From a virus, in IMG/VR virus record IMGVR_UViG_3300044701_001468: a DNA stretch of 64,000 nt; one strand, given 5' to 3'. Below the pieces are notes generated by a model. It was not told the DNA's origin and did not search any database. It saw only the letters and a program-made list of their open reading frames with translations. Within the stretch, counting starts at the first letter, position 1, and every line of letters starts with the position of its first letter. This document shows, piece after piece, positions 12,523 through 48,511 of this stretch. A program made the translations under genes and the position numbers.

Positions 12523-12849
12523 ATGCTTTCCACGCAATATCGACTGAGATTACAATCAATCTGTGACAAAATTATAAGTGGGGAGTCAGTAGATTTGAAC
12601 GATATGATTTGGGCAGAGAAGCTTGCCAAAGCAAATCGTTCTGCTGCAACCATGCTACGTCAAGCAAGACGCACTGCCGCCAACCCTGATATGGTGGAAG
12701 GTGATATGGATGATTTTTTAAACCAACTTGATATCGGTGGCATTGGAAACGATGCCAAAGGTATCAGAAGATTCGAAAGTGTTGATGACATCGTAGATTT
12801 CTTCAGCGAAGGTAGAGACAAACCCGACGACTGGAGGCAACGCGACTAA
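12523..12849 (+). CDS. Conserved cyanophage hypothetical protein
   Basis: MLSTQYRLRL...MIWAEKLAKAN; CTAAATA at 12494. Confidence 0.75.
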   Translation: MLSTQYRLRLQSICDKIISGESVDLNDMIWAEKLAKANRSAATMLRQARRTAANPDMVEGDMDDFLNQLDIGGIGNDAKGIRRFESVDDIVDFFSEGRDKPDDWRQRD

Positions 12850-13085
12850 TGGAATCACTTATACTTACCTGCTTACAAGCACAACTTTTAGCTGGAAGAG
12901 TATACGCACAGGAAAATATTGCTCCCAAAGATAAGAATGATTTAGTGTGGGAAATAAAACAAATAGCTCCAAAGGAATGTAAACTCTATGACAAACGCAC
13001 AGAGAGCAGCAATCAATCTGTTACTGGAAGACTTACATACAGTTCACCCAGAAATTCGTATGCAAGCAAAGAACGAGGGTTGTGA
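12849..13085 (+). CDS. Hypothetical protein
   Basis: 78 aa; TAATG coupling. Confidence 0.55.
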   Translation: MESLILTCLQAQLLAGRVYAQENIAPKDKNDLVWEIKQIAPKECKLYDKRTESSNQSVTGRLTYSSPRNSYASKERGL

Positions 13086-13167
13086 ACGAGAGCTAGATGA
13101 ATACAAAAGAGAAGTTCTACTTTACCTTATCAAAAAAGTATCTGTTGATACAGAATTACCAAACTAA
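12988..13167 (+). CDS. 59 aa hypothetical protein
   Basis: MTNAQRAAINLLLEDLHTVHPEIRMQAKNEGCERELDEYKREVL... Confidence 0.5.
   Translation: MTNAQRAAINLLLEDLHTVHPEIRMQAKNEGCERELDEYKREVLLYLIKKVSVDTELPN
13138..13151. promoter_or_regulatory. NtcA-type binding box
   Basis: GTATC-TGTT-GATAC = GTA-N8-TAC with an extended palindrome, 25 nt upstream of the riboswitch. Confidence 0.6.
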
Positions 13168-13174
13168 ATAATCC

Positions 13175-13219
13175 AACGTTCACCTGTATAGGCGGAAGTA
13201 GGGAAACCGAAGGAACGCA
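13175..13219 (+). promoter_or_regulatory. Glutamine riboswitch (glnA / class I)
   Basis: P1 CGTTC/GAACG, P2 CCT-GTAT-AGG, CGGAAGTA, P3 GG-GAAA-CC, GAAG: glnA-motif architecture. Confidence 0.9.
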
Positions 13220-13246
13220 CTTTACACAAGTAAAGGAGCAAATCCA

Positions 13247-13405
13247 ATGTCACAAGCAACTTATCGTGGTTGCCAGTATAACACTGACACCCCTAAAGAA
13301 GAATATCGTAAGTGGTATTCACAAACTCATGCACCAGCACATCCACAGAATACATATCGTGGTGTTGCCTACCGCCCATGTAAGAATGAGGAGGTAGCAC
13401 AATGA
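13247..13405 (+). CDS. DUF4278-like peptide (52 aa)
   Basis: MSQATYRGCQY...NTYRGVAY, two YRG motifs; AAGGAG RBS; directly downstream of the riboswitch. Confidence 0.8.
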   Translation: MSQATYRGCQYNTDTPKEEYRKWYSQTHAPAHPQNTYRGVAYRPCKNEEVAQ

Positions 13406-13485
13406 GTTGGTTAGAAGTTATTCGTAGACGAATCGAAAAAGAAAAACGCTTGAAACAAGCACAACTTGCGATGGCAATGAAATAA
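13402..13485 (+). CDS. 27 aa basic helical peptide
   Basis: MSWLEVIRRRIEKEKRLKQAQLAMAMK; GGAGG RBS; ATGA overlap. Confidence 0.6.
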   Translation: MSWLEVIRRRIEKEKRLKQAQLAMAMK

Positions 13486-13489
13486 AACT

Positions 13490-13511
13490 AAGACCCTTCG
13501 GGGTCTTTTTT
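13490..13511 (+). terminator. Intrinsic terminator
   Basis: AGACCC-TTCG-GGGTCT followed by a T-run. Confidence 0.9.
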
Positions 13512-13513
13512 AA

Positions 13514-13586
13514 TGGAAACAACTGGACTTGAACCAGTGGTCTTTCGATTATCAGTCGAATGCTTTACCAACTAAGCTATGTTTCC
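13514..13586 (-). tRNA. tRNA-Ile(GAT)
   Basis: Cloverleaf; anticodon arm TTCGA-CTGATAA-TCGAA. Confidence 0.95.
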
Positions 13587-14660: not shown

Positions 14661-14850
14661 CGTGCTCGGCTCGCCACTTGCCCTTTGACTGGAGGCAAGA
14701 AACCAGGCGGGAGAGAGTCCCATCCGCACCACCAATTTTTTAGAGAAATTGGAAACTCATCGAGGGGGTTCCCGACCAGGGTTGTTAACGTGTCTCCATC
14801 ACGGGCATAATAGGGTCAAATTTGACTCCACCAGGGCGCTTTTAATGTCA
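14661..14850 (-). ncRNA. manA-like structured RNA
   Basis: Two tandem GTTTC-stem-loop-(G)TGG pseudoknot units; ~190 nt GC-rich non-coding stretch next to tRNAs. Confidence 0.65.
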
Positions 14851-47505: not shown

Positions 47506-48511
47506 CCGCTACTCCATACAAGAATTCTTTCTTAGCACACTCATCTAGGGCTTGCATTATTTCGGGGGTGAAGTATTTGTCAGGGTCTTTATAGATGACC
47601 GAAGGATACACACTCCCAGAATCAAGTTTAATGCGGTTACCCACCCGCTCGAAGACTCCATACTTCTCACCCAATTCCAGTAATCCGTAATACTTGTCAA
47701 GACCTCTGGCGTCATAGAATAACCTCGTTTCGATGTCTGAGTTTTCTTTAGTAAAGCGAGACTTCTGTGCCTTCACTTTAATGATGTTACCAACCACCTC
47801 AGTGCCATCTTTCTCTTTCTTTTTAGAAAGGAAAAGAATACTAGAAGCAGAATACTTCAGACCACTACCACCACCCATTTCTTTAGTGGGCACATAAGCA
47901 CCAACCACATCGTATGTATGGTTAGTAACAATCATAGGAATCTCTGCTTGACCTAGCTTGAGTGAAAGAATACGGAAGATGGATTTGATAACCTGAGCAC
48001 GAGTCATGTCACGAGTTTCCTTGCCAGCAGTCGCATCCTCAACCTCTTTCGTGGTCGAGAGCATTCCCAAAGAGTCTAGCACAAAAAGCAGAGGAGGTCT
48101 AGCATCCTTCTTAAGTTTCATGTATTCGTCAACAACCTTAATACTTTGTGTACGAAACTCTTGCACAGTAGTTACAGGCACCAAACCAACACGCTTGATA
48201 TCAATGCCACGCTCAGCAAGCATATCTTTTTCGATAGCTGATTCAGATTCAAAATAGATTACTTGTGCTTCTAGGTTGCTGTCAAGGAAGTGCTTGCAGA
48301 TTGAGAGGGCAAAGAAGGTTTTACCTGTGCTGGATTCTCCTGCAAGTGCAGTGATTTTATTTGATGGGAGACCACCAAATATGCTCCCGCTGATAAGAGC
48401 ATTGAGTATGTAAGAACCAGTATCCACAAACGTTTTACACATGATGGAATCGTCAACGACGTTCGCATATTCATTATCTAACTCCTTAATAACAGATTGT
48501 AAGAAACTCAT
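47498..48511 (-). CDS. uvsX: RecA-like recombinase
   Basis: [23 protein letters not shown]. Confidence 0.97.

Follow-up and report, generated by a model that had tools for sequence, protein, structure and literature searches.

A candidate nitrogen-sensing cassette of cyanomyoviruses that joins an NtcA-type box, a glutamine riboswitch and two small peptide genes

Introduction

One defining piece of nitrogen control in cyanobacteria combines a DUF4278 gene with an NtcA operator and a glutamine riboswitch. Does a compact locus in a T4-like cyanomyovirus (IMG/VR record IMGVR_UViG_3300044701_001468, of which a stretch of 64,000 nt, hereafter the window, was analysed) carry the same circuit, and at which nitrogen status would its two small peptides be made? 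An earlier note, made from the letters of the DNA, had proposed that the phage reproduces the logic of the cyanobacterial gene gifB, which is repressed by NtcA and also controlled by a glutamine riboswitch. The host side of this parallel is borne out by the literature (PMC6212724, PMC6316151). Glutamine riboswitches of cyanophages, NtcA sites of cyanomyoviruses (PMC3037559) and the host circuit (PMC6212724) have all been published; in full-text literature searches, no paper turned up that treats the phage cassette as one unit, the box at a fixed phase or the two-peptide operon.

Layout of the cassette and its genomic setting

Positions 13138-13513 of the window form a self-contained cassette on the + strand. 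A sequence check placed every element that the earlier note had listed (a palindromic box, CTAAATA, a compact aptamer, a ribosome-binding site, two peptide ORFs, here called pep1 and pep2, and a terminator) where it had been described. The cassette closes a series of small + strand ORFs and is convergent with an array of tRNA genes on the minus strand, which starts at 13514 with a tRNA gene at 13514-13586. The window holds 14 tRNA genes and a wcaG RNA; the latter (RF01761, 99.5 bits; 14663-14760, minus strand) is located within the tRNA cluster. The records nearest to the window are those of Synechococcus phages DSL-LC03 and DSL-LC02, which match parts of an 8-kb probe with ~75-78% DNA identity.

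The 3′ end of the cassette is an intrinsic terminator, with a 7-bp stem (13490-13507) that includes four G-C pairs and a T run that extends to 13513. It scores on both strands and faces the convergent tRNA array at 13514, and it may close both transcription units, that of the cassette and that of the tRNA array. Equivalent terminators are found 3′ of pep2 in most related loci.

To collect these loci, IMG/VR was scanned with the pep1 peptide. The scan yielded 150 pep1-related phage loci, 80 of which were kept for comparison, with identities of 77-98%. Isolate phages with the cassette are DSL-LC03, S-CREM1 and S-PM2.

A glutamine riboswitch upstream of pep1

The RNA encoded at 13175-13221 (+ strand) is a canonical type-1 glutamine aptamer. 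What the earlier note had recognised as a glnA-type riboswitch was found by cmscan as a match to RF01739 with 55.2 bits (E = 2e-9), well over the gathering score of 35 and spanning the full model (1-53). Its junction sequences equal the exact consensus, every conserved junction nucleotide being present, and its stems are P1 (13177-13181 with 13213-13217), P1a (13183-13185 with 13190-13192, 3 bp only) and P2 (13201-13202 with 13207-13208), all on the + strand. Across 10 distinct single-aptamer variants P1a covaries, with compensatory changes such as CCU/AGG, UCCC/GGGA and UUCGCUAUU/AAUAGCGAA, and the junction core is constant; P1 and P2 are invariant in relatives and are thus uninformative for covariation. 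RNAalifold runs on MAFFT alignments misaligned P1a, and per-sequence folds were used instead. As a member of this family, the aptamer is expected to bind L-glutamine.

Directly 3′ of the aptamer, ViennaRNA predicts a hairpin (CUUUAC-ACAA-GUAAAG, 13220-13235, + strand) that covers the 5′ half of the Shine-Dalgarno sequence AAGGAG (13233-13238, + strand). Such a Shine-Dalgarno-sequestering hairpin is predicted 3′ of the aptamer in all 45 distinct platform variants, and its helix comes in two covarying sequence types, CUCUUUAA/UUAAGGAG and CUUUAC/GUAAAG. For the platform, no consensus came out of RNAalifold on the MAFFT alignment, since the anti-Shine-Dalgarno helix occurs in two registers. In folds without P1, the 3′ strand of P1 (GGA..GC) lengthens the helix by pairing with GC and UCC just 5′ of the AUG; for the window, the extended helix is predicted at -10.0 kcal/mol vs -4.9 kcal/mol for the short one. 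These thermodynamic folds suggest an ON switch that would act by alternative pairing, which is consistent with the gifB leader of Synechocystis, where the glutamine riboswitch has been measured as an ON switch and the gene is also NtcA-repressed (PMC6212724).

Three leader architectures precede pep1 in the related loci, the single canonical aptamer of the window being one of them. In the second (S-CREM1, S-PM2, locus L004 and many others), two variant cores stand in series 70-145 nt 5′ of pep1, in the order CGTTCA-hairpin-CGGAAGTAAGCCGACTCGGAACGGA and then TCGTTCA-hairpin-CGCAAAAGCCGACTGAAGGAACGC, and each core is without part of the canonical junction or P2. At the loci of S-PM2, S-CREM1 and DSL-LC03, nothing scored above the Rfam 15 gathering threshold; an E-value scan of the S-CREM1 and S-PM2 double cores gave sub-threshold values of ~33 and 24-28 bits, with 33.8 and 28.0 bits among them. 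In the third architecture, the hairpin position of the second core holds a complete ORF of ~45 codons. Enclosed ORFs of this kind occur at 34 related loci, between -192 and -58 relative to the pep1 ATG, and their AUG and UAG are part of the closing stem. The enclosed ORF is shown to be an autonomous gene by its homologue in the window (12849-13085, + strand; MESLILTCLQAQ...WEIKQIAPKECK...), which is free-standing. The latter lies ~400 nt 5′ of pep1, where it is flanked by a phrog_507 gene and a phrog_495 gene, and has a longer C-terminus than the enclosed homologues. At the locus of one distant pep1 relative in a phage-like context (P0066, L084), no riboswitch was recognisable by eye in the 173 nt upstream.

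An NtcA-type box at a fixed position

The 5′ end of the cassette is the palindrome GTATC-TGTT-GATAC (GTATCTGTTGATAC, 13138-13151), a box of the NtcA type (GTA-N8-TAC) with flanks aGTA...TACA. The pattern GTA-N8-TAC occurs 18 times in the window against 11.9 expected, a count that was reached by 5 of 100 shuffles, and in this chance test within the 64 kb of the window a single box is not significant on its own. The significance of the box comes instead from its fixed position across variants. We compared 54 distinct 81-nt upstream variants of the cassette in related phages and found GTA-N8-TAC either 38/39 or 58/59 nt 5′ of the first aptamer CGTTCA in 52 of them, a count to be read with the shared ancestry of the relatives in mind, as the variants are non-independent events. 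Variants of the 58/59-nt class have a small extra hairpin between box and aptamer. When the variants are anchored on the box, its spacing to a downstream element TAnATA is exactly 13 nt in 51/51 distinct variants; the distance from box to aptamer takes four values, and the spacing to TAnATA stays constant. The N8 core, the spacer and all sequence 5′ of the box are variable, and the half-sites are fixed. As to the flanks, the 3′ neighbour is A in 92% of variants, and the 5′ neighbour is T in 53% and G in 40%. Within the window, only one of the 18 GTA-N8-TAC sites shows the cassette geometry, namely the box at 13138-13151. Thus, the offset of the box from the downstream elements, on which the earlier note had made its reading depend, is kept in related phages.

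The box lies in the coding tail of an upstream ORF (12988-13167, + strand), which the earlier note had named as a possible source of a chance palindrome. The box covers residues 50-59, the last ten codons of this ORF, beyond its phrog_495 match at residues 5-49, and the S-CREM1 homologue of the ORF ends just 5′ of its own box, which answers the caveat. Moreover, the 5′ neighbours of the box differ among relatives: in some, a phrog_507 gene stops there, and others have a different ORF or the end of a tRNA; therefore, the box moves with the cassette and not with the neighbouring gene.

Core promoter and sign of NtcA control

A sigma-70 scan predicted a core promoter at 13145-13172 (+ strand) with 10/12 matches, composed of TTGATA (13145-13150, inside the box), a 16-nt spacer and AATAAT (13167-13172). 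Overlapping AATAAT is the motif CTAAATA (13164-13170, + strand), which aligns with an invariant (A/C)TAnATA of the relatives: the TA at box +27/28 and the TA at +31/32 are unchanged in 51/51 distinct variants. At this position, relatives have TATAGATA, TATATATA, TATAAATA or TG-n-TATAAT, and also TATAGAT, TATATAT and TATAAT. The window sequence ACTAAATA differs by one mismatch from the late motif of cyanomyoviruses, NATAAATA, which is documented for S-PM2 and Syn9 (PMC2984593), and relatives vary at the central position. The CTAAATA of the earlier note is present as described; its designation as late-type is ambiguous, as it occurs in the window about as often as expected (15 seen vs 13 expected) and the relatives differ. 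The invariant TAnATA ends in A, which makes a poor sigma-70 -10 element, and the late motif NATAAATA is also unmatched in most variants; TAnATA looks as much like the late motif as like a sigma-70 -10.

In the 38/39-nt class, which comprises 41 of 51 variants, a start 6-7 nt 3′ of TAnATA would fall 1-2 nt before P1, and in the 58/59-nt class the extra hairpin would be the 5′ end of the transcript. Relative to the start predicted in this way, the box centre is estimated at ~-31 in either distance class, a value that for the window presumes a start just before the aptamer, and the -35-like TTGATA falls within the box. The NtcA sites of gifA, with centres at -30.5 in Synechocystis and -28.5 in Anabaena, are repressing ones (PMC6316151), and the estimated centre is 1-3 bp farther upstream than these gifA sites. 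The activator geometry, with a centre at -41.5 and 22 nt to TAN3T, was not seen: there is no TAN3T 21-23 nt after the window box, and in the aligned upstream variants of its relatives the activator spacing is likewise absent. Because the centre of ~-31 resembles that of the gifA repressor sites and the activator spacing is absent, we favour, with moderate confidence, repression by NtcA at high 2-oxoglutarate (2-OG) over activation.

Activation, which we regard as rather unlikely, would assign the box a different task. It would replace a missing -35 element, so that transcription would take place in nitrogen-starved cells and translation would follow once glutamine rises; the cassette would then detect a nitrogen upshift after starvation. 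Such a role would suit the fact that most relatives are without a recognisable -35 hexamer 16-18 nt from the -10-like element, as activator-dependent promoters are, and centres of ~-31 and, in the 58/59 class, ~-51/-52 would lie on the same helical face as -41.5. NtcA sites have also been proposed by Sullivan et al. to promote cyanophage genes (PMC3037559). However, the canonical spacing (22 nt, TAN3T) is missing both in the window and in the relatives, the NtcA sites known from positions near -30 are repressing (PMC6316151), a TG-extended TATAAT, for which no activator is needed, is found in several relatives, and the host analogues gifA and gifB are both repressed.

Alternatively, the element downstream of the box could be a T4-type late promoter read by the phage sigma factor gp55, with the palindrome serving as a roadblock or having no role for NtcA, and expression would follow the timing of infection instead of 2-OG. 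To our knowledge, no promoter of the gp55 type has been found to be under NtcA control. The last six bases of TATAAATA agree with the invariant TAnATA, and four relatives have an exact NATAAATA at this position, a motif documented in S-PM2 and Syn9 (PMC2984593). Nevertheless, we consider this explanation quite unlikely, since CTAAATA is not enriched in the window and since most relatives either have G or T as the central base or show a TATAAT preceded by TG. Furthermore, a late promoter requires no upstream element, yet the box stands at one exact distance in 51/51 variants.

The two peptides

The first gene of the cassette, pep1 (13247-13405, + strand), encodes a 52-aa peptide with YRG at residues 6-8 and 37-39 and matches phrog_5049 (E = 4.6e-10). 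The earlier note had called it DUF4278-like. In the window, its match to Pfam PF14105 (profile positions 2-40) reaches 21.1 bits (E = 4e-4), under the gathering threshold of 25.3, but 31 of 32 pep1 homologues match DUF4278 at E ≤ 0.01, and two distant relatives pass the threshold with 26.2 and 25.4 bits. In addition, hhalign aligned pep1 with a 148-aa DUF4278 protein with a probability of 90% (E = 1.8e-6). Judged by these profile matches, pep1 is a borderline member of DUF4278, in agreement with the earlier description.

An AlphaFold model of pep1 (pLDDT 73) has a hairpin-helix-hairpin arrangement with the YRG motifs at turns. Searched with the pep1 profile, the PDB sequences contained no match at E ≤ 10, a Foldseek search of the PDB with the model returned only noise (E > 4), and NCBIfam had no match for pep1 or pep2. 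An exhaustive profile search retrieved only 43 representatives of pep1, nearly all of 40-80 aa. A scan of contigs from cellular genomes found no close cellular homologue; its single match was in QCLS01000003.1, a 189-kb single-cell contig of Prochlorococcus sp. AG-418-C09, with a phage-type leader. Since the representatives are few and short and the lone cellular match has a leader of the phage type, the pep1 subfamily looks phage-specific. In length the contig itself matches a T4-like cyanophage genome, and it may be phage DNA that ended up in a single-cell assembly; its leader is double-core, with an ORF ending in the first core.

The second gene, pep2 (13402-13485, + strand), encodes a basic helical peptide of 27 aa, and its start overlaps the pep1 stop (ATGA). 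It matches phrog_545 with E = 6.5e-4. Nearly all related loci keep pep2 as a basic helix, with the same -1 ATGA overlap. In some relatives the two peptides are joined: in SCREM1_206 of S-CREM1 (L002:1543-1689), the first 17 residues of pep1 are fused straight to a pep2-like helix, and protein P0056 is a natural fusion of a full pep1-like domain with a pep2-like tail. From the conserved overlap and these fusions we infer that pep1 and pep2 act together. The idea that pep2 is a detached effector of the PirA or IF7 type finds no support in the sequence, as hhalign gave probabilities of <1% against the C-termini of the DUF4278-PirA protein described below and of another long DUF4278 protein.

Proposed mechanism and possible targets

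On this evidence we find it fairly likely that the two peptides are made only in the nitrogen-replete infected cell, through NtcA repression combined with a glutamine ON switch. In the first layer, as the geometry of the box suggests, a dimer of host NtcA, active at high 2-OG, that is, under nitrogen limitation, would bind the GTA-N8-TAC box; overlapping the -35 region and centred at ~-31, it would block the promoter as it does at the gif promoters. The transcript would begin essentially at P1 of the aptamer. In the second layer, without glutamine, the 3′ strand of P1 would lengthen the hairpin that buries the Shine-Dalgarno sequence, and glutamine would steady P1, shorten the hairpin and thereby allow translation, an ON switch like that of the Synechocystis gifB leader. 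The two peptides would then be made by coupled translation and would probably act jointly on a host nitrogen-signalling protein.

That box and aptamer are instead an inherited relic, kept by recent common descent upstream of peptides with no nitrogen role, is highly improbable: all relatives are homologous and Pfam and structure searches yield no functional anchor for the peptides, but at protein identities of 67-98% flanks and stems change freely and the ligand core and box half-sites stay fixed, P1a and the anti-Shine-Dalgarno helix show compensatory changes, and the cassette is found in several unrelated genomic contexts.

The obvious candidates for the target of pep1 and pep2 are glutamine synthetase (GS) and PII. 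None of the elements of the cassette singles out GS, the possible target named in the earlier note. DUF4278 is the N-terminal moiety of IF17, and inactivation of GS needs the C-terminal IF7-like region (PMC6316151, PMC6212724); judged by its length of 52 aa and the DUF4278 profile positions 2-40, pep1 is without such a region. A comparison is offered by a cellular-looking gene (L087:1150-1751) whose neighbours on an ENA metagenome contig encode a HAD hydrolase and GntR. It encodes a 148-aa protein with DUF4278 at residues 1-78 and a PirA domain at residues 102-144 (NF050139, 54.2 bits vs a cut-off of 50), and is preceded by GTAAGCTATGATAC (GTA-N8-TAC), ATAAATA and an RF01739 aptamer of 53.7 bits. 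A fusion of DUF4278 and PirA under the control of an NtcA box and a riboswitch was not found in a search of the DUF4278 literature. PirA binds PII and regulates arginine synthesis (PMC7760959). Because a cellular-looking DUF4278 protein behind the same box and riboswitch type carries PirA, PII seems an equally good guess as GS for the target of the phage peptides. By the same comparison, DUF4278 looks like a module that is combined with various nitrogen-regulatory effectors, with two-layer control of one and the same kind.

A more far-reaching proposal, which we put forward as speculation and consider improbable, is that pep1 and pep2 together are a split, viral counterpart of small host inhibitors of nitrogen regulation, either IF17/IF7, which act on GS, or PirA, which acts on PII, with negative feedback on the cassette. 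If so, ammonium assimilation or PII signalling would be blocked in nitrogen-replete cells, 2-OG would go up and NtcA would be switched on. This would feed the many NtcA-dependent promoters of the phage and shut the cassette off again, and the virus would drive the C/N sensing loop of its host.

Comparison with known systems

The closest parallels of the cassette are the gifB (IF17) and gifA (IF7) loci of Synechocystis sp. PCC 6803. Like these, the window locus has an NtcA site in a repressing position (predicted here), a type-1 riboswitch (RF01739) that lies in the 5′ UTR and is predicted here to control translation, and a DUF4278 protein 3′ of it, and the shared logic would be to make the protein only at high nitrogen status (Klahn et al. 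2018, PMC6212724; Bolay et al. 2018, PMC6316151). The box centre, estimated at ~-31 in the window, is as in gifA, whereas that of gifB is at -7.5 according to a review (PMC6316151). In contrast to gifB and gifA, the unit of the window is phage-borne, its 52-aa product is without the GS-inactivating C-terminal IF7-like region, and a second peptide of 27 aa is predicted to be co-translated. The IF17-like gene of Prochlorococcus MED4 resembles it in encoding a short, DUF4278-only protein and in combining a glutamine riboswitch with an NtcA site at the core promoter; that locus, however, is a cellular gene with an aptamer of type 2 (Downstream-peptide) and the NtcA site over the transcription start (PMC6212724).

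On the phage side, the aptamer belongs to the same RNA family as the glutamine riboswitches of T4-like cyanophages (PMC2864571), including S-CREM1 (PMC9964418) and S-SCSM1 (PMC9602691). These three papers, the first being Weinberg et al. 2010, treat the RNA only, with no NtcA-type box, peptide identity or cassette unit. The S-CREM1 and S-PM2 loci are homologous to the window cassette and have double cores in place of its single canonical aptamer. As for the box, GTA-N8-TAC sites in intergenic regions of cyanomyoviruses were described by Sullivan et al. 2010, who proposed coupling to host 2-OG (PMC3037559). Those sites were proposed to be promoting; the geometry in the window points to repression, and its site is paired with a riboswitch.

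The conservation of a compact and mobile cassette across many cyanomyoviruses suggests that these phages read both 2-OG and glutamine before making the two peptides. The cassette is thus a handle on how phages sense, and perhaps reset, the nitrogen status of the host, and it bears on models of viral lysis under nutrient limitation. It also supplies natural short DUF4278 proteins with which the role of the domain may be found.

The 18 GTA-N8-TAC sites of the window include a single one with activator-like spacing, located at 47680-47720 (+ strand), with 21 nt to TAGAAT.
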